This document shows positions 19,680-29,519 of a stretch of 30,489 nt of DNA, one piece after another. The notes under the pieces were generated by a model that searched no databases, had not been told where the DNA came from, and saw nothing but the letters and a program-made list of their open reading frames with translations. The DNA is from a virus, in the IMG/VR virus record IMGVR_UViG_3300022074_000239; one strand, given 5' to 3'. Both the position numbers and the translations under genes were made by a program. Each line of letters starts with the position of its first letter. Position 1 is the first letter of the stretch.

Positions 19680-19754
19680 GCAGTAGTAGTTCAGTGGTAG
19701 AACGCCTCGTTGCCAACGAGGAAGTCGGGAGTTCGAATCTCCTCTACTGCTCCA
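19680..19754 (+). tRNA. tRNA-Gly (anticodon GCC), CCA encoded
   Basis: Cloverleaf folded by hand. Acceptor stem GCAGTAG/CTACTGC; D stem GTTC/GAAC; anticodon stem CCTCG/CGAGG with loop TTGCCAA; T stem GGGAG/CTCCT with loop TTCGAAT; discriminator T then CCA. Confidence 0.9.
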
Positions 19755-21047
19755 CTAATCTTGTTCTGGTTTATAACCCTTATCAAATGAATCAGCCATT
19801 CTCTTCTTGAGATCCATATCTTCTTTGATATAGTACTCACGAGTCACACGATCATTCTTATGTCCTAAGTGATTGGCAATATCAGTTGAACTCCAACCAA
19901 GACCAGCAAGAACTGTTGCTGATGTGTGTCTTGTATATTTAGGAGACTTGAGTGGTCTTTCAATACCAACCAACTCTTGAATCCGAATAAAGTTCTTTCT
20001 GAAATAATCTAAATTGATCAGATGTCCGAACTTATTAACAAAGAGATATTGATCTTCGTGATATACACCGAGAAGATCTAACTCCACAGCTAACTGTTGA
20101 ACATAGTCAATGACTGCATCTGGACAAGATTGTATTCTCTGAGATGAGGATTTGACCTTTGATTCATCATATACCCATCCAGTTATCTCTCCATTTTCAT
20201 TGTTAGATGCTTTCTTTGAGATAGCTTTATTGATCACAACTTCTTTATTGATGAAATCAAAGTCACTAAACTTCAAAGCCATAAGCTCTCCAGTTCTTAG
20301 ACCTAGATAAAATCCAAGACAGAATCTTCCATACCAAGTGATCGGAGGAATATTTCCAGTTGAATTTCTCATTTCAATATGAGTTCCAGTGTCTCTTGTG
20401 ACCTCGACTCTAGTCTTTGGAATGTGTCGGAGCTTCTCAAGATTTGTGTGGATCTCTTCTAGTGACCAAGTTTCATCTCGCATCTCATTAAAGATCCTCT
20501 CATCTCTCTCTTGTTGCTCTTGAGTTCTTCTTTCAAGTTTGACATTTGCTAGGGGATTAGCATCGATCTGATTCATTGTTCTTGCTAGATCAAGCAGAGT
20601 CCTCAGTTCTGTCTTGTAGTTCTGAATTGATGCTGGTTTCAATCCTCGATCTTTTAATCTTTTGAGGTATTTATACATCATCGAACTTGTTATATCTTCG
20701 AGCTTTATATCCCAAAGACCTATTTCTTTCCAGAATTTTATTGATGCGTTGATCTGTGCTTTATTAACAACAGACACTTGTCTCTCAGCTTTGAGCCAGT
20801 GAGTCAATGCAAACTCTCCAACAGTCATTGCATCTTCTTTTGTCACGAGCTTTAGAGAGTCTCTAGTGTTAAGATCATCAACAATCTTCTTGCTAAAACG
20901 ATCAGCTTCAGCTTTTGTCTTCTGAACTTTGCCATTCTTAACTTGTTTAACTCCATCTTTGTCAAAGACCACATATCTTGGTCTCCAACCAATAGATCCA
21001 GATTTATAATTTATCTTCTGGCTTCGATATACTTTTGCTTCTTTCAT
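19755..21047 (-). CDS. int: Tyrosine integrase
   Basis: The C-terminus carries ...YTRHTSATVLAG...ANHLGHKNDRVTREYY (R-H-R-Y type boxes). Start moved to ATG 21047 (MKEAKVYRSQ...), which follows AAGGAGA. The track's N-terminal extension is non-coding repeat DNA. The TAG stop abuts the tRNA CCA end. Confidence 0.9.
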   Translation of the reverse strand: MKEAKVYRSQKINYKSGSIGWRPRYVVFDKDGVKQVKNGKVQKTKAEADRFSKKIVDDLNTRDSLKLVTKEDAMTVGEFALTHWLKAERQVSVVNKAQINASIKFWKEIGLWDIKLEDITSSMMYKYLKRLKDRGLKPASIQNYKTELRTLLDLARTMNQIDANPLANVKLERRTQEQQERDERIFNEMRDETWSLEEIHTNLEKLRHIPKTRVEVTRDTGTHIEMRNSTGNIPPITWYGRFCLGFYLGLRTGELMALKFSDFDFINKEVVINKAISKKASNNENGEITGWVYDESKVKSSSQRIQSCPDAVIDYVQQLAVELDLLGVYHEDQYLFVNKFGHLINLDYFRKNFIRIQELVGIERPLKSPKYTRHTSATVLAGLGWSSTDIANHLGHKNDRVTREYYIKEDMDLKKRMADSFDKGYKPEQD

Positions 21048-21527: not shown

Positions 21528-21857
21528 TCAACCTTTTCTTCTTCTTTCTGGAAATAAGTCACGCACCTTTCGATTGTTGTGCAGTCCTTTTCTTTGAGCT
21601 GGGATAGTTCCACCCCAGACACCCTCTGAACAATAGTTTTTAATCGCATAAGCAAGACATTCAGCTCTGACTGGACATTGCAGACAGATGTCGATTGCTT
21701 GTTTGTATTCCTTGTTTAAGGATCTACCTTTTAGATCTCTTTCCATAATGAATAGGGAAGTGTCACTTGATACACAAGCTCCTTGCTCTTTCCATTGATA
21801 TTCTGGATCTGAGATCAATTGTTTGACTTCAGACAATGTCAGATGATCATTTGTCAT
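21528..21857 (-). CDS. whiB: WhiB-like transcription factor
   Basis: Cys-Xn-Cys-X2-Cys-X5-Cys (GACV...DICLQCPVRAEC) plus GVWGG and a basic tail. I prefer ATG 21857 over the track's TTG 21917; neither has a clear SD. Confidence 0.8.
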   Translation of the reverse strand: MTNDHLTLSEVKQLISDPEYQWKEQGACVSSDTSLFIMERDLKGRSLNKEYKQAIDICLQCPVRAECLAYAIKNYCSEGVWGGTIPAQRKGLHNNRKVRDLFPERRRKG

Positions 21858-21966
21858 AGTGGGCTGTCCAGAATCGAACTGGATCTTTTGTCTGGACTTT
21901 CTGAGTTCTCGATTCAAAAGAAGACCATCTCAGCCCTGTTGCCCTCAAGAATGGGATCTGAGGGGC

Positions 21967-22455
21967 TTAAAATGGAGCATCTTGCTCCTTTATCTCGATA
22001 TGGACTTTCGGCAATCTAAGGATTGCATCGAGAAGAGTGTTTAATTGTTCAAGATCACTGCTCTCAAGAGTTTTATGAGCTAGATCTCTTAAATCACGAT
22101 AATTTGTGATCTGAGCTTCTTTATTCACTGCATACTGCTTGACTTGAGCTTCTATCTTCCACATTGCATTTGCAGTCACGAGTTCATCTTCATCAGTTGG
22201 AAGTTCTCCAATAACTTCTTGACCATTAAGCCATTCATTTGCATCTCTGTATCTTTGCAAATGGCTATTGTTCAGCCATCCAACATCTTGAGCTATCTCA
22301 TTCAATAAGACATACGCATCAACAACTTTCTTCTTGAGCTGTTTTAATTGATCAACTTTCTTCTTGTGTAGATCATCAAGAGCTTCTTCTTCTGAATTAA
22401 CCAAGATCGGATCTGGTTGAGCCATATAGTCTGAAACTTTTCCAAAGTAGCTCAT
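21967..22455 (-). CDS. Hypothetical early protein (162 aa) ending in DAPF
   Basis: Start moved to ATG 22455 (GGGAGGA RBS; ATGA overlap with the upstream stop). C-terminus is ...EIKEQDAPF*. Confidence 0.65.
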   Translation of the reverse strand: MSYFGKVSDYMAQPDPILVNSEEEALDDLHKKKVDQLKQLKKKVVDAYVLLNEIAQDVGWLNNSHLQRYRDANEWLNGQEVIGELPTDEDELVTANAMWKIEAQVKQYAVNKEAQITNYRDLRDLAHKTLESSDLEQLNTLLDAILRLPKVHIEIKEQDAPF

Positions 22456-22829
22456 TTGATCCTCCCAGCTTGAAATTCTTCTCCAAACCACTGATCAAAG
22501 TTATCATCGATCATTGATTTTCTATTAAGTCCCAACAATCTGACATTTCTTTCATTGATCAGATCATCTGGCTCAATTGTTGTTCTACTGAAAGCAAGTC
22601 TTTGATCATTTGCTCTGACCATTGCTTTTCTATTCATCACAAGAGCTTCGACAAGATTGTTCTCAATGTCTTGCAATTGTTTTAATTGATTCGCAGATTC
22701 GAAATATTGTTGCTTATTAAAATCCCATCGTTGATCTATTGATACAATCTCAACTTGTGGATAATGTGTATGAGCATACATCATTTCTTCTGTTTGTTTT
22801 ATTGGGGCTGGTTGAATATCTTCTGCCAT
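22452..22829 (-). CDS. Hypothetical early protein (125 aa)
   Basis: AGGAG RBS. No recognised domain. Confidence 0.65.
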   Translation of the reverse strand: MAEDIQPAPIKQTEEMMYAHTHYPQVEIVSIDQRWDFNKQQYFESANQLKQLQDIENNLVEALVMNRKAMVRANDQRLAFSRTTIEPDDLINERNVRLLGLNRKSMIDDNFDQWFGEEFQAGRIK

Positions 22830-22842
22830 ATTCTTCTCCTAT

Positions 22843-23334
22843 TTAAAATGGAACATCCTTATGATCTTCCTCTGATTTTTTGTCGAATGGATCTATTTCA
22901 ACAGTGTCTTCTTTTGGAGCTGGAGGGACTTCAGTCTTGATCCAGTCTTGTGGAAGATCCTTTGAATTAAGCCACCACGACTTTCTGAGCATTCCATATT
23001 GACCTTGTTTTCTACCACTGCAATCAGTGTTGTTAGAACAGACAAAGTCTGGGCTCTTCTCTTTATATTCCCCAGATCTCTTTTGTGGTCTATTGTCAAA
23101 GACTTTAGATTCACATAGATAACAGACAAGGTTTTGTCTTGGGGGAGTTGTCTCTGTCACTGGAATAACCTCATTGATCATCTCCACTGGATCTGATGGT
23201 GGCTCTTCCTCGATAACAGATGGCACTTCGTTTTCTTGTGTTTGCAGTAGTTCAGCCAAGATCTTCTCAGCTTCATCAATTGCTTGTTTTGACAGCTCTA
23301 TCTTTTGAAGAGCTTGATCAATATTTATGTTCAT
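22843..23334 (-). CDS. Zinc-ribbon protein with acidic DVPF tail (possible non-canonical ssDNA-binding protein)
   Basis: 163 aa: N-terminal helix, Pro-rich linker, C4 ribbon (CYLC...SPDFVCSNNTDC) resembling topoisomerase-type zinc ribbons, and C-terminus ...EEDHKDVPF*. Confidence 0.4.
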   Translation of the reverse strand: MNINIDQALQKIELSKQAIDEAEKILAELLQTQENEVPSVIEEEPPSDPVEMINEVIPVTETTPPRQNLVCYLCESKVFDNRPQKRSGEYKEKSPDFVCSNNTDCSGRKQGQYGMLRKSWWLNSKDLPQDWIKTEVPPAPKEDTVEIDPFDKKSEEDHKDVPF

Positions 23335-23846
23335 ATATCCTCATTTCTCATAATTTCTGAAACTTCTAGCAAGATTGATTCAGACCAGTCCAGATCCCAG
23401 AGGTTTTCATAATCTGCATAAGTGAATGGCTCTTGCTTCCAACTATTCAACTGATCTTGCAGTGACTTCTTCCAACCAATAGGGAAGAGCTTCTTCAACT
23501 TTCCCTTTGTGTGATATGTCTGATCATTAATTCTTGGAGATTGTTTGATCCGATCTTTCAAGAAATATTGTTTGCAGTTCTTTTCTTTGCAATAACAAGT
23601 CTTCTTTCCAAGTTGTATTCTCCACTCTCTAAGCATCGGAGCTCTCTTAATCACTTCAATATCATCAAACTTTTGATCAACAATCTTTGTCCCATATTTC
23701 TTAAAGTTTGGATCTACTTTCAAAAGTATCTGCAAACAAACAGAATTGAACTTTCTTAGTACTTGAAAGATAGATGTATTTCTGACCTCAGTTTCACTTG
23801 GAACTTCATTGATATATTTGGATGTGGCTCTTATTGGATCACTCAT
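23331..23846 (-). CDS. Hypothetical early protein (171 aa)
   Basis: Start moved to ATG 23846 (MSDPIRATSK...), which follows GGGAGG. Confidence 0.6.
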   Translation of the reverse strand: MSDPIRATSKYINEVPSETEVRNTSIFQVLRKFNSVCLQILLKVDPNFKKYGTKIVDQKFDDIEVIKRAPMLREWRIQLGKKTCYCKEKNCKQYFLKDRIKQSPRINDQTYHTKGKLKKLFPIGWKKSLQDQLNSWKQEPFTYADYENLWDLDWSESILLEVSEIMRNEDI

Positions 23847-24189
23847 AAGACCTCCCACATCCAGCACAAAACTTCTGATCAATAGGAACTCTTTTATTCT
23901 TTAAGTCACAAGAGTCGATCTTGCATTGTTTTGATTCATATCGAACAGCTTCTCCATTAATCATTGAGACACATTGATCAGCTATCTGACCAAGTTTTTT
24001 TGTTATATATCTACGATTTGAAAGTTGTTTGTTGAAGTTCTTGTCATAATTGTCTGGAGCTGTCTTAGATCCAGAGACAGATCTCTCAAGTTTCATATTC
24101 GATAGTCTTGGACTTCCGATTTCTTCTGAAGCTGTATAAAACGAAATAATTGTTTTGATGTGCTCTTCAGCTTTCTTAGAGATTTTCAT
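23839..24189 (-). CDS. Hypothetical early protein with C-terminal zinc ribbon (116 aa)
   Basis: ...CKIDSC...CAGCG. TAATG overlap with the upstream gene. Confidence 0.6.
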   Translation of the reverse strand: MKISKKAEEHIKTIISFYTASEEIGSPRLSNMKLERSVSGSKTAPDNYDKNFNKQLSNRRYITKKLGQIADQCVSMINGEAVRYESKQCKIDSCDLKNKRVPIDQKFCAGCGRSYE

Positions 24190-24581
24190 TATAGATCACC
24201 AACTGCTTTCTCTAATCCATCAGACATTTCGCCACCATCTTCTTCAATCTTGTGTCTTATAAGCTCAACCAAAGAATCAAATCCTTGAGATCTGGCATAT
24301 TCTTTTGATGTCATCCAAGTTGATGGATCTTCATCTGGAGCTTCGATCTGTCTTTCAGCAAATTGCTTTGTGACTTCATCTCTGCACATAGACATTAATT
24401 TGGCTGGAGATGGCTTTCGAGACATCCCTTGAGTCAATTTCAAAACATTGAGAAGCACAGAGCTGTTGAATTGTCGAAACTCTGGAGCAATTGTCTGGAG
24501 CTGTCGATCAGAGAACTTGTAGTCGTGCCAGTTATCAATCTTCATCAAAAATTCCTCAATAACAAACTTCAGATCACTCAT
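24189..24581 (-). CDS. Hypothetical early protein (130 aa)
   Basis: The track start 24587 directly abuts GGAGG. The ATG at 24581 has proper 6-nt spacing. Confidence 0.6.
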   Translation of the reverse strand: MSDLKFVIEEFLMKIDNWHDYKFSDRQLQTIAPEFRQFNSSVLLNVLKLTQGMSRKPSPAKLMSMCRDEVTKQFAERQIEAPDEDPSTWMTSKEYARSQGFDSLVELIRHKIEEDGGEMSDGLEKAVGDL

Positions 24582-24969
24582 TGCCATCCTCCATTTGTTC
24601 GATCCATTTTTTCATCTTTGCTTCACGAGATTTCTCTTCGATCTGTTTATTGACTTCACCTTTTGGAATTGGCATCAATCCAGTTCTAAAACGATTGAAG
24701 TGCTTCACATAAGCAAAAGGGGATGGGATGTGATGAAAGTGTGCAATATAAGACTGCTGGGCAATTTTCATCTCATCAAGACTTGGCTCTTGTGCTACTA
24801 GATCCCAATAGCATTTCATAAAACCAGACTTCTGCTGATCACTCATTCTCATATCTGTATTAGTGAGAAGAGCAAGTTGCTCAAATATCTGATCCTTAAT
24901 AAGTGGAAATATCTTTTCACGCCAAGAAGAGTCAGACTGAGATTGAAAAGCTGATAATTCTTTTGACAT
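24574..24969 (-). CDS. Hypothetical early protein (131 aa)
   Basis: TAATG overlap with the upstream gene. No recognised domain. Confidence 0.6.
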   Translation of the reverse strand: MSKELSAFQSQSDSSWREKIFPLIKDQIFEQLALLTNTDMRMSDQQKSGFMKCYWDLVAQEPSLDEMKIAQQSYIAHFHHIPSPFAYVKHFNRFRTGLMPIPKGEVNKQIEEKSREAKMKKWIEQMEDGNE

Positions 24970-25352
24970 TATAAATCTCCCTCAGTCTGTTTTCTCTTCT
25001 TATCACGATCAAGTTTCAGAATGGTCTGACCAATTTTTTTCTCCCAATCTGGTAGGGACACAGTCCCATCAACTTCATCGATCCACGAACAATCGTGCAA
25101 TGCTTTATATATCTGATCACCATCTAAATCCAGAGCCATAATGCTTGGGAGATGGTCTTTTGTGACTTGTAGCTTTCCAGACATAAGGATTCCTTTTCCA
25201 TCTGGGAAGTCAGTTATTGATATAGACCACAGTCTCACTAGAGCTCCTATGGTCTCATTAATTGTGATCCCAAGTGTTTTTGCTATGTGGATCACTTCAA
25301 ATTTGTTGAATATCCTTGAATCAAGTTGAAACCAAATATCTCTCTTCGCCAT
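24969..25352 (-). CDS. Hypothetical early protein, weakly replisome-organiser-like N-terminus
   Basis: MAKRDIWFQLDSRIFNKFEVIHIAKTLG...GALVRLW resembles the W-x-K/Q-L-D...F start of phage replication organiser proteins. Weak. Confidence 0.3.
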   Translation of the reverse strand: MAKRDIWFQLDSRIFNKFEVIHIAKTLGITINETIGALVRLWSISITDFPDGKGILMSGKLQVTKDHLPSIMALDLDGDQIYKALHDCSWIDEVDGTVSLPDWEKKIGQTILKLDRDKKRKQTEGDL

Positions 25353-25540
25353 TATTGATCACCTCTGATCAACGACATAAGAACAGATTTTTCAACCCTT
25401 AAAGGTTTAAGTTTGGTTGATGATCCAGTCGGTACAGCTTGAAGCTGTCCAGTATCAATCAACCGATAAGTTGTAGCTTTGCTCCAGCCAGTGAGTTCAA
25501 CAATCTCCTTGACTGAGAGCAACAATTTGCTGTCTTGCAT
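25352..25540 (-). CDS. HTH_17 / excisionase-family DNA-binding protein (Xis- or Cro-like)
   Basis: 62 aa with LSVKEIVELTGWSKATTYRLIDTGQLQAV. It is the first gene of the early operon and has an AGAGGA RBS. Confidence 0.75.
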   Translation of the reverse strand: MQDSKLLLSVKEIVELTGWSKATTYRLIDTGQLQAVPTGSSTKLKPLRVEKSVLMSLIRGDQ

Positions 25541-25638
25541 ATCATTCCTCTTGGTCTTGGAGAAGTTTCAAAAATTCTATGGTCTCTAAAGGAGACACAC
25601 AGCCCCATCAAATTTTTCAATCTTCTCTTCTTTCCCTC

Positions 25639-25676
25639 TGGGAAACTATTGACATAATTATGTCTCTATTTTCCCA
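25639..25676. promoter_or_regulatory. Operator O1: TGGGAAA-N24-TTTCCCA enclosing palindrome GACATAATTATGTC
   Basis: Read directly. The outer 7-mers are perfect inverted repeats, and the inner 14-bp palindrome lies at 25651-25664. Confidence 0.6.
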
Positions 25677-25690
25677 AAAGATTTGTTCTA

Positions 25691-25699
25691 ACTATATCA
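25691..25699 (-). promoter_or_regulatory. Candidate extended -10 promoter of the early (minus-strand) operon
   Basis: Minus strand reads TGATATAGT (TGnTATAGT). No good -35, which is tolerated by extended -10 promoters. Confidence 0.4.
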
Positions 25700-25715
25700 C
25701 AGCTGTGGAATTTGA

Positions 25716-25753
25716 TGGGAAATAAAAGACAAGTATTTTAATTATTTTTCCCA
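25716..25753. promoter_or_regulatory. Operator O2: TGGGAAA-N24-TTTCCCA
   Basis: Same 7-mers and the same 24-nt spacing as O1, with centres 77 bp apart. Lies between the two divergent promoters. Confidence 0.6.
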
Positions 25754-25758
25754 AACTC

Positions 25759-25786
25759 TTGACTTAGAGAATCGATGATTTATGAT
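25759..25786 (+). promoter_or_regulatory. Promoter of the 455-aa gene (leaderless configuration)
   Basis: TTGACT (25759-25764), 16-nt spacer, TATGAT (25781-25786). The ATG at 25795 is 8 nt after the -10, with no SD in between (TAATAATT). Confidence 0.55.
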
Positions 25787-25794
25787 TAATAATT

Positions 25795-27162
25795 ATGAGC
25801 AAAGAAATAATGAACAACGATTCTGAGAAGCAGAGCTTGTTTGCATATGATATTGATGCAAACTATCGTGATCTATTCTTTTCATTAAAAGACAAGAAAG
25901 TCAGAAGTCTATTTCAAAAGAAGTGGGACTCTGTTTTATATACTGGACAGACTGGTGGCTTCTTAAATACTTTTCAGATCCATATGGATAAAGACATTAT
26001 GTTTCCAGAGCATAAGTTCATTCAAGATGACTTCAAGGTTGCTCATATAAATAATTTTTTTAATAGCATTCCAAACTCTGATCCAGATCCATATGTTGAG
26101 CAGAATCTTATTGATTTGAGAAAGTCCACACTTGCTGAAGCAATATTTGTTGGAACTCTTAGTTCAGAGGATCTATTTAGACCATCAGCTTTCTGGAGTT
26201 ATGATCTTGGACAGAATTTAGCTGAAAAGGGGATTGCTAAGAAATTGAAGACTGATGTCTTTTATATAACTGCAATCGTATTCCAACCAAATCAAAGTGT
26301 TCAGTTTGTTTGTTTTGAGACAGTTTATTCTTATGCACAATTAAAAAAACTAGCAAAGAATCTTGATCAACCATTTGGAGAATCATTGTTTGGACTTGAT
26401 AAAAGAAAAAACAATTTTATTGCTCATATAGATCAGCTCAATGGATTTTTGTTGTTGTTGAATGATGATGACACTGCAATATGGAGTGCCGATAGAATTG
26501 AAGCTACTGAGATAATTGATAGATATATTTTTATAAGAAAATTTTGTGCAAACCTTTCTCATCATCACTTATCAACTGAATTAGCTAGAAAAGGAATTGC
26601 AACAGATCACAAAAGACTTGCTTATTGGGAGAAGTCTGAATCTAAGACACCAGCATTTGTGAAAGATCAGAATTTATTTAAAGCATTGATCAAGGTATTA
26701 GCAGAAAGATCATTTGCTTTGTTTGAATATTATTTGAGGGATTCAGTGGGAGAAGATCTTGTCCCATTGCATAAGATTGAGACTTGGATCAGAGAATTTG
26801 TATTATTTGGAAGAGATTCATCATTGATCGACATTCCAGAGTTTATAGATAATTTTATTTATTTTGATGATGGGGAAAAGAAGAACTCAGTCAAGAAAGA
26901 GTATGAACAAGTCTTGATGAAAACCAAACTTGATAAGAGTCTCAGAGAGAATATCAATATCTGGTCGGCTAGAGATTTGGATGATTCACCAGTACAGATC
27001 ATTCAGTTCACAAATATGCTTGGACAAATGTCTGATGCTGATGTTGTTGAGTGGACAGAGGATTTATATCAAGATGATCAAGACAAATATGAAGTGTTTA
27101 AACTTTGGAAGTTCTTAAATAAAAGAATTGGGGAGTTCCAAGAATTAGAGCCCCCCTTTTAA
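25795..27162 (+). CDS. Repressor-position protein with internal XRE-like HTH and SSB-tip-like C-terminus (455 aa)
   Basis: The only large plus-strand gene, divergent from the early operon. Residues ~244-305 (nt 26524-26709) read IFIRKFCANLSHHHLSTELARKGIATDHKRLAYWEKSESKTPAFV, matching an XRE HTH pattern. Ends ...ELEPPF*. The N-terminal 240 aa and C-terminal 150 aa are unrecognised. Confidence 0.5.
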   Translation: MSKEIMNNDSEKQSLFAYDIDANYRDLFFSLKDKKVRSLFQKKWDSVLYTGQTGGFLNTFQIHMDKDIMFPEHKFIQDDFKVAHINNFFNSIPNSDPDPYVEQNLIDLRKSTLAEAIFVGTLSSEDLFRPSAFWSYDLGQNLAEKGIAKKLKTDVFYITAIVFQPNQSVQFVCFETVYSYAQLKKLAKNLDQPFGESLFGLDKRKNNFIAHIDQLNGFLLLLNDDDTAIWSADRIEATEIIDRYIFIRKFCANLSHHHLSTELARKGIATDHKRLAYWEKSESKTPAFVKDQNLFKALIKVLAERSFALFEYYLRDSVGEDLVPLHKIETWIREFVLFGRDSSLIDIPEFIDNFIYFDDGEKKNSVKKEYEQVLMKTKLDKSLRENINIWSARDLDDSPVQIIQFTNMLGQMSDADVVEWTEDLYQDDQDKYEVFKLWKFLNKRIGEFQELEPPF

Positions 27163-28102: not shown

Positions 28103-28315
28103 TTATCCACCTACTTTGAACAGAATTTCACGAATGACTTCTTCGATGATTATTAAGTTTTGATTGAAACCAGATATGCTTTCTTGATAAGCATTGACTT
28201 GAGCTTTTAATGTTGCAACTTCTTGTTGCATATCATTAACTGTTTTAAATAACCAAGCCACTAATCCAGCGAGACCACCTTGCAATATTTGATTAAGATT
28301 GACTGTTGCTTTCAT
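28103..28315 (-). CDS. Small membrane/coiled-coil protein (70 aa)
   Basis: AGGAG RBS. Hydrophobic N-terminus (GGLAGLVAWLF) followed by a coiled coil. Confidence 0.6.
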   Translation of the reverse strand: MKATVNLNQILQGGLAGLVAWLFKTVNDMQQEVATLKAQVNAYQESISGFNQNLIIIEEVIREILFKVGG

Positions 28316-29519
28316 AATTTGTTTTGACTCCTTTAGTCGTTAGAGTCCAGAAGAATCCTCTCCAAGTGATCGTGTTATTGTCATAGACCACCAGCTCTGG
28401 ATGAAATGTGTTTTTCTTTCGATCTACAACTAAAGTCACAAATCCTCCTTGCCAATCTGGATGTTTGGAATATCCCAAACCTTTTAGATCAGCAAGTGTG
28501 CCAGTTTCAATTGCAGAATATAAATTCATTTCCTCGCCAGTCCAACGAGTTTGATGTGTTATTGCAAGTCTGTGAGTATGTCCCATAATGATCGATCCAT
28601 TGATTCTTTCAATAGATGACAAAGCACTCATTCCAGCTTGTTTTCTTAATGCAGATCCAGAGTGAGTTGCAAACAAACCTTTGACAACTTCATATTCACT
28701 ATGAGGATAAACATCTGATGGTTTGTCCCAATAAGTCCATCCAAGATCATTAAATCTCATTAAATTAGCCAAATGAAGAACAGACTTCTCATCTTCACTG
28801 ACATCAGCTCTCTTGATCCCAAACAATTGAGGAAGTTTATCGATCAGAGCTCTTCTAAGTCGAAGCTCGTGATTTCCCTCTAAGAAGATCAGTTCATCTT
28901 TCTTTGTTAGACCAGCTGAGTCTCTCAGATCTCTCAATGTTGAATATCCTAGATCAACTCCCTTTTGCACAGTAGAAGTGAAATCTGGATTCGTTGCAAA
29001 CTTTGACAAGTTGGGGAAATCAATTAGATCCCCAATATAGATCAATCCATCTGGACTGACATCTTGCAAGAAATAGTGGGAGAGCTCAGTCAATTGCTTG
29101 TTTGCAAATGGAAGCTGTGAATCACCAAGCACAACGAGAAGCTCTGGTTTGCTTTTAGCTTTGAGAGTTGGTTGAGGACTGAAACCATTCCCACCCAGAG
29201 ATTCTATTGACTTAATGAACTCTCCCAAAAATTTAGGTTTTTGCTTCAGAGTTGCTTTTGTCTGCTCCATTAATCTTTTGCCCCCATTAACATCTGGAGC
29301 TTCCCATTGATTAACAGTCAGACTTTGGATTTCCCATTGATCTGGATCAAATCCTCTTTCTTTAAGCATTGACCAGACTTCATTTATATCTGATGATCCA
29401 ACTGGTAGAGTTGCAGTAGCTTTGCCATCTTTGACTTTGACAGCTACCTTTTCAGATTTGTCTGATCCTTTCACGACTTTATTCTCGTGATTATAATTTT
29501 TAAGAGATTTCTTTGGCAC
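28293..29519 (-). CDS. Metallophosphoesterase (calcineurin-like fold)
   Basis: Motifs VLGDSQLPF, GDLIDFPN, LEGNHE, ATHSG and GHTH. The N-terminal ~120 aa form an extra domain. GTG start at 29519 is uncertain. Confidence 0.75.
   Translation of the reverse strand: MPKKSLKNYNHENKVVKGSDKSEKVAVKVKDGKATATLPVGSSDINEVWSMLKERGFDPDQWEIQSLTVNQWEAPDVNGGKRLMEQTKATLKQKPKFLGEFIKSIESLGGNGFSPQPTLKAKSKPELLVVLGDSQLPFANKQLTELSHYFLQDVSPDGLIYIGDLIDFPNLSKFATNPDFTSTVQKGVDLGYSTLRDLRDSAGLTKKDELIFLEGNHELRLRRALIDKLPQLFGIKRADVSEDEKSVLHLANLMRFNDLGWTYWDKPSDVYPHSEYEVVKGLFATHSGSALRKQAGMSALSSIERINGSIIMGHTHRLAITHQTRWTGEEMNLYSAIETGTLADLKGLGYSKHPDWQGGFVTLVVDRKKNTFHPELVVYDNNTITWRGFFWTLTTKGVKTNYESNSQS

Follow-up and report, generated by a model that had tools for sequence, protein, structure and literature searches.

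A conserved C-terminal Pro-Phe tag on three unrelated early proteins of a WhiB-encoding temperate phage

Three unrelated proteins of one phage end in an acidic residue, a variable residue, Pro and Phe, which raises the question of whether these termini are a single functional tag and what such a tag might bind. A preliminary description of the window, the whole analysed stretch of 30,489 nucleotides, had read them as mimics of the C-terminal tip of SSB, the bacterial protein that binds single-stranded DNA. The element is a temperate phage of ~30.4 kb that encodes WhiB, an integrase and an adjoining tRNA-Gly. Since the WhiB-like transcription factor (21528..21917, minus strand; Pfam PF02467, E = 3.7e-16) marks actinobacterial hosts, the phage carries an actinobacterial host signature. 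The phage is widespread, and its host is probably a marine low-GC actinobacterium. The tRNA-Gly(GCC) (19680..19754, plus strand) abuts the tyrosine integrase (19755..21047, minus strand), and this junction (19680..21047) is the probable attP region. In relatives, a tRNA-Val(GAC) occupies the corresponding place. When the phage tRNA-Gly was used as a query in two genome scans for the host, no match was obtained, and a metagenome scan of circular design returned no actinobacterial-type SSB at ~33-38% GC.

Replication genes and the count of Pro-Phe termini

The genome was searched by phmmer/HMM and with Pfam for a canonical SSB and none was found, in agreement with the preliminary description. 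By the same methods none of the three tagged proteins is an OB-fold SSB. The earlier claim that the phage has no recognisable replication enzyme stood for polymerase, helicase and primase, which gave zero Pfam matches on any gene of the genome, but has to be qualified for a protein encoded at 24969..25352 on the minus strand. This protein has a replication-initiator or replisome-organiser N-terminal domain (PHROG 9474, E = 1.3e-14; TIGR01714 weakly, E = 0.005) and represents the only recognisable replication function in the phage. The first gene of the early operon (25352..25540, minus strand) encodes a small DNA-binding protein of the HTH_17 (excisionase/MerR) type (Pfam E = 1e-6).

When the open reading frames were re-examined, only three of the 48 greedily called genes had a Pro-Phe (PF) terminus, with the C-termini and coordinates exactly as first described, whereas no such end was seen in the 133 non-gene ORFs with a length of 40 aa or more. 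From the composition of the genome (P 2.9%, F 4.3%), the probability of three or more such ends among 48 is 3e-5. With an empirical background of 51 other WhiB-phage loci, where 10 of 1367 genes have a PF tip, a binomial test gives P = 0.005 and Fisher's test P = 0.008. The termini had been called very unlikely by chance; when the dipeptide was left unspecified, however, at least three termini shared some dipeptide in 21% of the simulations. The count within the genome is thus modest evidence and not decisive by itself, and the decisive evidence is the conservation of PF in homologues. The residue at position -4 is acidic in all three proteins (D-A-P-F, D-V-P-F and E-P-P-F), as described, but only one of them, a zinc-ribbon protein, has the poly-acidic tail of an SSB.

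The three carriers and the conservation of their tips

The first carrier is a helical protein of unassigned function encoded at 21967..22491 on the minus strand. From a GTG start it has 174 aa and ends ...IKEQDAPF, with the D-A-P-F tip at 21970..21981 and the stop codon at 21967..21969; public gene calls start it at the ATG at 22455, which gives 162 aa. It showed only weak matches to PHROG 5216 and DUF7078. Its database homologues (P0077-P0083) end in APF or PPF in six of seven cases, the exception being P0082, and so do all six distinct homologues from the loci. Distant syntenic homologues were found with the family HMM in L023, L022, L025 and L037.

The second carrier (22843..23334, minus strand; 163 aa, ending ...EEDHKDVPF) was analysed with a family alignment (A1) and AlphaFold2. 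It consists of an N-terminal helix and an acidic, Pro-containing linker, followed by a zinc-ribbon core with four Cys and by a tail that is acidic and has the PF end. The helix (residues 3-33, 23236..23328) was predicted with a pLDDT of 84-92 over the first 30 residues and is possibly an oligomerisation element. In the core (residues 63-132, 22939..23148), which is conserved in A1, the invariant residues comprise C71, C99, C105 and a second N-terminal Cys, together with basic and aromatic residues including K77, R82, K85, Y90, K91, F97, R117, K118, W120, W121 and W131. No Pfam family was found for the core; in 5 of 30 members DnaI_N gave a weak match (E 0.09). As the zinc-ribbon fold was predicted at a low pLDDT of ~50, binding of single-stranded DNA is a conjecture. 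The tail (residues 143-163, 22846..22908; pLDDT <50) varies in length and sequence up to its D-V-P-F tip (22846..22857), where F163 is invariant in A1 and P162 is present in at least 90% of the members. PF was kept in 68 of 74 homologues; the other six are three truncated fragments and three proteins ending in FTF. One or two residues follow the Phe in 40 of the 68 (PFN, PFQ, PFS, PFDQ and others). The last 20 residues of the family have a mean net charge of -4.9. With a confidently predicted helix, a Cys4 core of the DNA-binding type and a low-pLDDT acidic tail capped by PF, this protein appears to follow the logic of an SSB, its core being probably DNA-binding and oligomerising.

The third carrier (25795..27162, plus strand; 455 aa, ending ...EFQELEPPF) is divergent from the early operon and had been placed in the repressor position. 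This placement is reasonable. The most conserved block of its family is an HTH-like core (residues 240-305, 26512..26709) with the motif R-F-x-F/Y-V/I-R-x-Y-L-x-G-x-S-Q-N-x-L-A ... Y-W-E ... P-x-F, for which AlphaFold2 predicted five short helices. hhalign put the core in register with helices 2 and 3 of the 434 repressor, although weakly (E = 0.05), and a PDB profile search gave weak matches to AcrIF25 (0.011) and an RpoN-box HTH (0.04). The mean pLDDT of the whole protein was 71.8; Foldseek found no significant match in PDB and BFVD, and PADLOC gave no match. In the divergent intergenic region, two 38-bp palindromes (TGGGAAA-N24-TTTCCCA; 25639..25676 and 25716..25753) form putative operator-like sites, followed by a sigma-70-like promoter (25759..25786, plus strand).

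The E-P-P-F tip of this carrier lies at 27148..27159. Relatives with 18-29% identity end in DPPF, DAPF, EAPF, EVPFS or EAPFD, and a [D/E]-[P/A/V]-P-F tip is present in seven of nine aligned family members, with residues after the Phe in two of these seven (P0087 and P0088). Syntenic homologues of 484 aa with 27% identity have NPPF or DPPF ends, whereas P0089, P0091 and the proteins of L023 and L024 have lost the tip.

The check in homologues, which the preliminary description had left to be made, showed the terminal PF retained in all three families down to ~25-30% identity, as [D/E]-x-P-F at the C-terminus or within two residues of it. The Pro codons vary among homologues (CCA, CCC, CCT, CCG), as do the Phe codons (TTT, TTC), and the DNA downstream of the tips differs between loci, which places the selection at the level of the protein. 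The preceding tails vary in length and sequence as well; in the 455-aa and 174-aa families they range from neutral to strongly basic (as in KTKKGQIDPPF), with one acidic residue near the tip. Apart from a fourth small early protein of the relatives, which ends in EEELPL in L022 and GEELPF in L037, the tip is found on no further gene of these phages. Taken together, the tag is real, conserved and common to three unrelated early or regulatory proteins. Because PF is retained so deeply, with synonymous codons and variable tails, we take the three termini to be instances of a single short linear motif under selection at the C-terminus.

Candidate partners of the tag

Our preferred reading, to which we give slightly less than even odds, is that the shared tag docks into SSB-tip-type pockets and recruits the host clients of SSB or competes with SSB for them. 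[D/E]-x-P-F would be a docking tag for the pocket by which genome-maintenance proteins bind the SSB tip. The carriers that would be bound to DNA are the zinc-ribbon protein, whose acidic tail resembles that of SSB, and the HTH-like protein beside the operator-like palindromes. They might recruit SSB clients such as PriA, RecO, RecG or ClpX to phage DNA; alternatively, the tagged proteins might compete with SSB for these clients. Characterised actinobacterial SSBs have a DDEPPF end. The SSB of Mycobacterium tuberculosis ends in DDEPPF, a tip cited for RecO (PMC3575820), and its terminal Phe is needed for ClpX activation (PMC7847540). Among the 10 PF tips in the 51 other WhiB-phage loci, three cap annotated ssDNA-binding proteins, with ends of the form D-E-(E)-P-F: a canonical SSB (L050) ending in EADEEPF, and two members of DUF669 / PHROG 'single strand DNA binding protein' ending in SSDEPF and SVDEPF.

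SSB-tip mimicry is therefore plausible, but the proposal is only partly supported. In its favour are the conserved PF, the WhiB host signature, the actinobacterial DDEPPF tip and the absence of a phage SSB, polymerase, helicase and primase. Against it stand the one or two residues that often follow the Phe, whereas in E. coli SSB the C-terminus has to be free and ExoI binding is lost when it is blocked (PMC7293020), and the neutral to basic tails of two families. We infer the SSB-tip pocket, a host protein as the partner and the identity of that partner. This reading suggests that the phage connects proteins of its own to the DNA-maintenance machinery of the host. The further proposal that lysogeny control is linked to replication-fork status is pure speculation.

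It is unlikely, though worth serious weight, that the tip instead docks the three (or four) carriers onto one phage partner. All carriers lie in or adjoin one early module that is kept as a block in relatives, and the extra residues after the Phe and the basic tails would fit a pocket unlike the canonical one. A precedent exists in phage T7, where the Phe-ended gp2.5 tail binds the phage polymerase; however, a partner of this type is a polymerase, which this phage lacks. An unannotated early protein or the replisome-organiser-like protein might serve, but the early proteins have no recognisable fold or family and no candidate partner was found. Moreover, the similar tips on the SSBs of unrelated WhiB phages argue for a receptor that is host-wide and not specific to the phage.

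Rather improbable is a tag recognised by a host AAA+ unfoldase or protease, foremost ClpX(P), that would set when early and repressor-like proteins are turned over or remodelled. The C-terminal tags of MuA and the Mu repressor and the ClpXP control of lambda O offer parallels, and such a tag on the protein in the repressor position would be a natural control of a switch. The basic tails that run into a hydrophobic end in the 455-aa family (KKGQKNPPF, KKRRQEAPFD) are reminiscent of basic C-terminal ClpX tags. We know of no C-terminal x-P-F degron, and this reading overlaps the preferred one, as ClpX would then be one of the clients of the SSB tip. The mycobacterial SSB peptide ...DDEPPF binds and activates ClpX in a Phe-dependent manner, but SSB was not degraded in that study, which makes the tip an activator and not a degron (PMC7847540).

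A binding motif for the sliding clamp DnaN is very improbable. Some phage proteins are known to target DnaN, and clamp-binding motifs are short, hydrophobic, often C-terminal and tolerant of trailing residues, which would fit the variants PFN and PFDQ. However, the consensus QL[S/D]LF or QLxLxL calls for Gln at its start and for Leu or Met ahead of the final hydrophobic residue, whereas the carriers have no conserved Gln, an almost invariant Pro before the Phe and A, P, V, L, S or H at -2 relative to the Phe. Chance, composition or a DNA-level signal, such as CCATTTTAA in a terminator, ribosome-binding region or promoter, could draw on the simulations with an unspecified dipeptide, but is effectively refuted by PF conservation in three families, the codon variation, the unrelated downstream DNA and the non-gene ORFs.

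Comparison with known systems

The C-termini of SSBs read ...DDDIPF in E. coli, ...DDDLPF in Bacillus subtilis and ...DDEPPF in M. tuberculosis. The carriers resemble them in the terminal x-P-F after an acidic residue, with an invariant Phe and a nearly invariant Pro. In the zinc-ribbon protein the tip also ends a variable, acidic, disordered linker on a probably DNA-binding, oligomerising core, and in other WhiB phages a similar tip is found on canonical and DUF669 SSBs. They differ in not being OB-fold SSBs, in that two of the three tails are non-acidic and in the one or two residues often found after the Phe.

In T7, gp2.5 requires its C-terminal Phe, and the acidic tail of this protein binds a basic patch of the polymerase; the gp4 helicase-primase has an acidic Phe-ended tail that also binds T7 DNA polymerase. 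As here, several phage proteins have a common Phe-ended tail and would share a single docking site or contend for it. In contrast, the receptor in T7 is the phage's own polymerase, whereas the present phage lacks a polymerase, a helicase and an SSB, and the T7 motif is acidic with a Phe but without a conserved Pro. Canonical phage and plasmid SSBs with a host-like tip, such as that of L050, likewise let a mobile element use the host's SSB clients, although the tip here is on non-SSB proteins, including a putative transcription regulator, with three or four such proteins in each genome. Mimicry by short linear motifs is a general concept for eukaryotic viruses. While the virus here is bacterial and its host receptor putative, the likeness lies in a very short, terminal, disordered motif that is convergently placed on unrelated viral proteins.

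Terminal Pro-Phe tips in the window and in homologues

The 174-aa protein encoded at 21967..22491 on the minus strand ends with ...KEQDAPF, the 163-aa zinc-ribbon protein (22843..23334, minus strand) with ...EEDHKDVPF and the 455-aa protein (25795..27162, plus strand) with ...EFQELEPPF, exactly as the preliminary description had stated. These were the only PF-ended genes among the 48 called in the window, and the other 133 ORFs contained none. The claim that three such tips are very unlikely by chance was upheld by the amino-acid composition (P = 3e-5 for at least three of 48), whereas some dipeptide was common to at least three termini in 21% of the simulations when the dipeptide was not fixed beforehand. 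Among the 1367 genes of 51 other WhiB-phage loci, 10 had a PF tip; with this empirical background, the binomial P was 0.005 and Fisher's exact P was 0.008. Because of the simulation figure and these modest empirical P values, we regard the PF count within the genome as suggestive, not decisive.

Conservation of the terminal PF in homologues had been named as a check, and the dipeptide was kept in 68 of 74 zinc-ribbon homologues, in 6/7 database homologues of the 174-aa protein and in 7/9 homologues of the 455-aa protein. The zinc-ribbon homologues were cluster representatives with identities down to about 50%. The six without PF were three truncated fragments and three proteins ending with FTF. 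In the alignment A1 of this family (30 sequences), F163 was invariant and P162 was present in at least 90%, and the 15-25 residues preceding them differed in length and sequence. The Phe was the terminal residue in 28 of the 68 and was followed by one residue in 20 and by two residues in another 20.

The 455-aa family is small. HMMER, run exhaustively against 1.84 billion representatives, gave members at 18-29% identity with the ends DPPF, DAPF, EAPF, EVPFS and EAPFD, and two members had no tip. A residue follows the Phe in P0087 (PFS) and in P0088 (PFD). The syntenic 484-aa homologues in related phages (27% identity) end with KKGQKNPPF or KGQIDPPF, and the more distant homologues in L023 and L024 (about 24% identity) end with MFGS. 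The database homologues of the 174-aa protein that keep the tip end with APF or PPF. With a family HMM for this protein, syntenic homologues were detected in L023, L022, L025 and L037; they are 156-196 aa long and all end with [D/E]-A-P-F.

In relatives with proteins of 27-60% identity, the same three syntenic genes were the only ones to end with PF, with one addition, a fourth gene for an early protein of 110 aa that is absent from the window. It lies between the homologue of the 174-aa protein and WhiB and has an acidic tail, ending with ...ETEEELPL in L022 (8064..8396) and with ...ETGEELPF in L037 (257..589). The tag thus extends to another family, with variation between Phe and Leu. Across the loci, the Pro of the tip was encoded by CCA, CCC, CCT or CCG and the Phe by TTT or TTC, and the DNA 3' of the stop codons was unrelated, which places selection at the protein level rather than at that of the DNA. 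Among the observed tips, [D/E/K/S]-[A/P/V/L/S/H]-P-F, the consensus was [D/E]-x-P-F with A, P, V, L, S or H as x. At the level of sequence comparison, this conservation settles that the tip is under selection. Very probably it is a functional C-terminal linear motif common to unrelated proteins and is hence read by a common receptor.

Architecture of the carriers and the putative switch region

The zinc-ribbon protein starts with a confident helix (residues 3-33 in the AlphaFold2 model), followed by an acidic, Pro-containing linker and a core of 70 residues, in which four Cys are conserved and many Lys, Arg, Tyr, Phe and Trp residues are invariant. Its PF-capped tail (residues 143-163) had a pLDDT below 50 and was variable in length in A1. 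Tails of this family carried a net charge of -4.9 over the last 20 residues. We infer a protein that mirrors the logic of SSB without the OB fold, with an oligomerising and presumably DNA-binding core, a disordered acidic linker and the tip. The AlphaFold2 model was too low in quality for a fold search. The N-terminal zinc-binding, helicase-interaction domain of DnaI (PF07319) is no more than a lead, since only 5 of 30 members matched and the best E value of 0.094 was far short of the cut-off. Matches of A1 to Rab5-GEF in a PDB profile search were spurious. The first zinc knuckle, around residues 71-75 (23110..23124), reads C-x-L-C or C-P-C-[D/E]-[L/M]-x-C in A1, and the latter form is concentrated where residues follow the Phe (PFDQ, PFS), with the homologue P0073 as an exception that has a plain PF.

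The 174-aa protein, which probably starts at 22455, is helical and had no informative family match in Pfam or PHROGs. In its family the tail charges range from -2 to +1, and each tail has one D/E, at -3 or -4. None of the three carriers matched a significant family in Pfam, PHROGs, NCBIfam or PADLOC, the last also covering known defence families. A tblastn search of 50,697 phage records and a megablast of the region gave no match. The SSB family (PF00436, OB fold) was not matched by the carriers in Pfam, NCBIfam or PHROGs. When all ORFs of the window were analysed by phmmer and a small SSB HMM, the E values were above 1, and the same HMM found the SSB of L050, a locus of another WhiB phage, at 2.6e-24. 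This agrees with the earlier statement that the genome has no canonical ssb.

The gene of the 455-aa protein and the early operon diverge. The AlphaFold2 model of the protein had a pLDDT of 71.8, which fell to 57 over the last residues past a confident helix, and Foldseek found nothing in the PDB and BFVD at E <= 0.001. The most conserved block (residues ~240-305) is HTH-like and was modelled as five short helices. With hhalign, helix 2 and helix 3 aligned in register with the 434 repressor at a weak E value of 0.05, and a PDB profile search gave weak matches to AcrIF25 (0.011) and the RpoN box HTH (0.04). No Pfam HTH was matched in any of the nine family members, and neither Peptidase_S24, the autocleavage domain of the LexA/S24 type, nor any other Pfam family matched. 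The tails of this family have charges of 0 to +6 and a single D/E at -3 or -4. The distant member P0088 (L032, 148..1719) has a DUF4379 treble-clef zinc finger fused at its N-terminus (Pfam E = 8e-10) and the C-terminus ...RRQEAPFD.

The divergent intergenic region of 255 bp contains two palindromes of 38 bp, both built as TGGGAAA-N24-TTTCCCA, at 25639..25676 and 25716..25753. They are 77 bp apart and, judged by their sequence, look like operators of a genetic switch. A promoter-like site, TTGACT-16-TATGAT at 25759..25786, faces the 455-aa gene. Because of the divergent gene, the HTH-like block, the operator-like palindromes and the promoter-like site, the repressor position that had been assigned to this carrier is a fair description, whereas repressor function itself is putative.

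The phage genome and its host

The window, with 30,489 bp and 37.8% GC, represents one essentially complete phage genome; the phage is tailed, temperate and small. Recognisable genes encode the small and large terminase, the portal, an S78 protease, the capsid, an HNH endonuclease, a WhiB-like factor (21528..21917, minus strand; Pfam E = 3.7e-16), an HTH_17 protein and a tyrosine integrase (19755..21047, minus strand). The preliminary description had seen no recognisable replication enzyme. This holds for polymerase (by Pfam), helicase and primase, whose signatures, like that of SSB, are absent from all genes of the ~30.4 kb genome, but a protein with a replication-initiator or replisome-organiser N-terminal domain is encoded at 24969..25352 on the minus strand. 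A second small Cys-rich early protein of 116 aa (23839..24189, minus strand; ...CKIDSC...FCAGCGRSYE) is kept in all relatives and belongs to no assigned family. Between a DUF5675 gene and holin-like genes, a 408-aa protein (28293..29519, minus strand) shows the motifs GDSQ, GDLIDF, GNHE and GHTH of calcineurin-type metallophosphoesterases. It aligned with the whole Pfam Metallophos profile at E = 0.003, below the cut-off.

The same gene set was found on contigs of ~30.4-30.5 kb in more than 200 blocks of a public assembly index, among them blocks from Tara Oceans and from many marine samples of JGI. The lineage is thus common in marine metagenomes, and its hosts are uncultured. The longest public contig with these genes, L011 (60,825 bp), was rejected as a prophage, since it consists of two head-to-tail units of the 30.4 kb genome. 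Such an arrangement fits a genome that is circular, or one that is circularly permuted and terminally redundant. None of the contigs read had a prophage junction, and look-ups of the phage proteins returned free-phage contigs of ~30.4 kb only, with no host genome among them.

The stop codon of the integrase abuts a full-length tRNA-Gly(GCC) at 19680..19754 on the plus strand. No database record matches this integrase as encoded, and neither the whole tRNA-Gly nor its 3' 25-mer occurred without mismatch in any of 185,579 species genomes. Related phages carry tRNA-Val(GAC) at the same place (L025, 13114..13188; L026, 9490..9564; L027, 10180..10254), so that integration specificity has apparently been swapped between tRNA genes. 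The host is an actinobacterium, as marked by WhiB. The low GC content, the marine origin and the tRNA-Val(GAC) beside the integrase in relatives make Ca. Actinomarinales the likely host. The GC content of published WhiB phages of Ca. Actinomarinales is 33-36%, and one of these phages resides as a prophage in tRNA-Val (PMC7771536).

Possible receptors of the tip and known systems

Bacterial genome maintenance has its central recruitment handle in the SSB tip. The tip is also an antibacterial target, and it is known to determine how efficiently phage recombinases can be transferred between hosts. Without SSB and all replication enzymes, the phage must recruit host machinery. The motif has a solid basis in the comparative data, and what follows on its receptor remains a proposal. 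Our leading, still tentative candidate is a pocket for the SSB tip on host proteins that serve genome maintenance or are of the ClpX type. Such a pocket would receive the phage tip, which would either bring host clients to the DNA-bound phage proteins or compete with SSB for them. Among the 10 PF tips in the 51 other WhiB-phage loci, three cap ssDNA-binding proteins. These are a canonical SSB (L050, 7143..7559) ending with ...EADEEPF and two DUF669 or PHROG 'SSB' proteins (L061, 6712..7275; L064, 3596..4168) ending with ...S-x-DEPF. A TrmB/MarR-like winged-helix protein (L083, 4314..4727, minus strand) ends with ...VVEEEPF. In WhiB phages x-P-F is therefore an SSB tag that is possible on a regulator-type protein as well.

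By the logic of T7, the tips might instead dock on a hub encoded by the phage. This is unlikely. A polymerase Pfam family was found on no gene of the ~30.4 kb genome. A tag for a ClpX-type unfoldase that governs turnover of the carriers is more doubtful still, and it overlaps with the proposed SSB-tip pocket since mycobacterial ClpX is itself an SSB-tip client. The clamp-binding motif QL[S/D]LF is very improbable and was rejected because the tips have no conserved Gln at position 1 and Pro, not Leu/Met, at position 4. Chance and a DNA-level signal were dismissed as negligible, since PF is conserved, its codons are synonymous and the DNA past the stop is unrelated. The remaining probability falls to a receptor not considered here.

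Starting from the SSB-tip pocket, a wider picture can be drawn that is possible, at a low probability. An abundant marine actinobacterial phage lineage without its own SSB would have spread the host SSB docking tip over three to four unrelated early proteins, including a non-OB zinc-ribbon DNA-binding SSB-like adaptor and the regulator in the CI position. This would wire the start of replication, and perhaps also the switch between lysis and lysogeny, directly into the host network of the SSB clients PriA, RecO, RecG or ClpX. The earlier idea of a link from lysogeny to the state of the fork or of ssDNA, through the tip on the protein in the repressor position, is speculation. Motif mimicry is well known in eukaryotic viruses. 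If the proposal is true, it shapes phage-host interfaces too, and the SSB handle copied onto non-SSB proteins, a switch regulator among them, would be a bacterial-virus case of systematic short-linear-motif mimicry. The copied handle would also give small temperate phages that lack replication genes a concrete way to capture host primosome or repair factors, and a C-terminal [D/E]-x-P-F on non-SSB proteins would be a rule to mine phage genomes for hijackers of the host interactome.

An SSB-like tip is already known from SSBs of phages and plasmids, and T7 replication proteins are known to share Phe-terminated acidic tails. In a limited literature search, which leaves novelty unproven, non-SSB phage proteins with the tip were not reported, nor was its presence on several proteins of one genome or on a switch regulator. 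In contrast to T7 gp2.5 and gp4, no phage-encoded polymerase is present here to receive the tails. The 455-aa protein resembles a Cro/CI (XRE) repressor in its divergent position beside the early operon with operator-like repeats between, but lacks the S24 autocleavage domain.

The known client pockets of the SSB tip need a free alpha-carboxylate on the terminal Phe, whereas one or two residues follow the Phe in 40/68 zinc-ribbon homologues and in two relatives of the 455-aa protein. In E. coli, a protein appended to the C-terminus of SSB abolishes ExoI binding (PMC7293020). Characterised actinobacterial SSBs end with DDEPPF and functionally require the terminal Phe (PMC7847540, PMC3575820). 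When metagenomes were scanned for [D/E]3-P-P-F-stop written in AT-rich codons, 12 SSBs were obtained, of which the low-GC ones (35-37%) were of the E. coli type and those of the actinobacterial type, ending with EEEPPF, had 44-45% GC; being conditioned on the pattern, the scan is uninformative on the true host. As for the acidic run of SSB, the zinc-ribbon tails are acidic and those of the 174-aa and 455-aa proteins are neutral to basic. As in SSB, Pro-Phe are the last two residues of all three proteins in the window, and the tip ends a disordered tail of variable length in the zinc-ribbon protein and a low-pLDDT end in the 455-aa protein.
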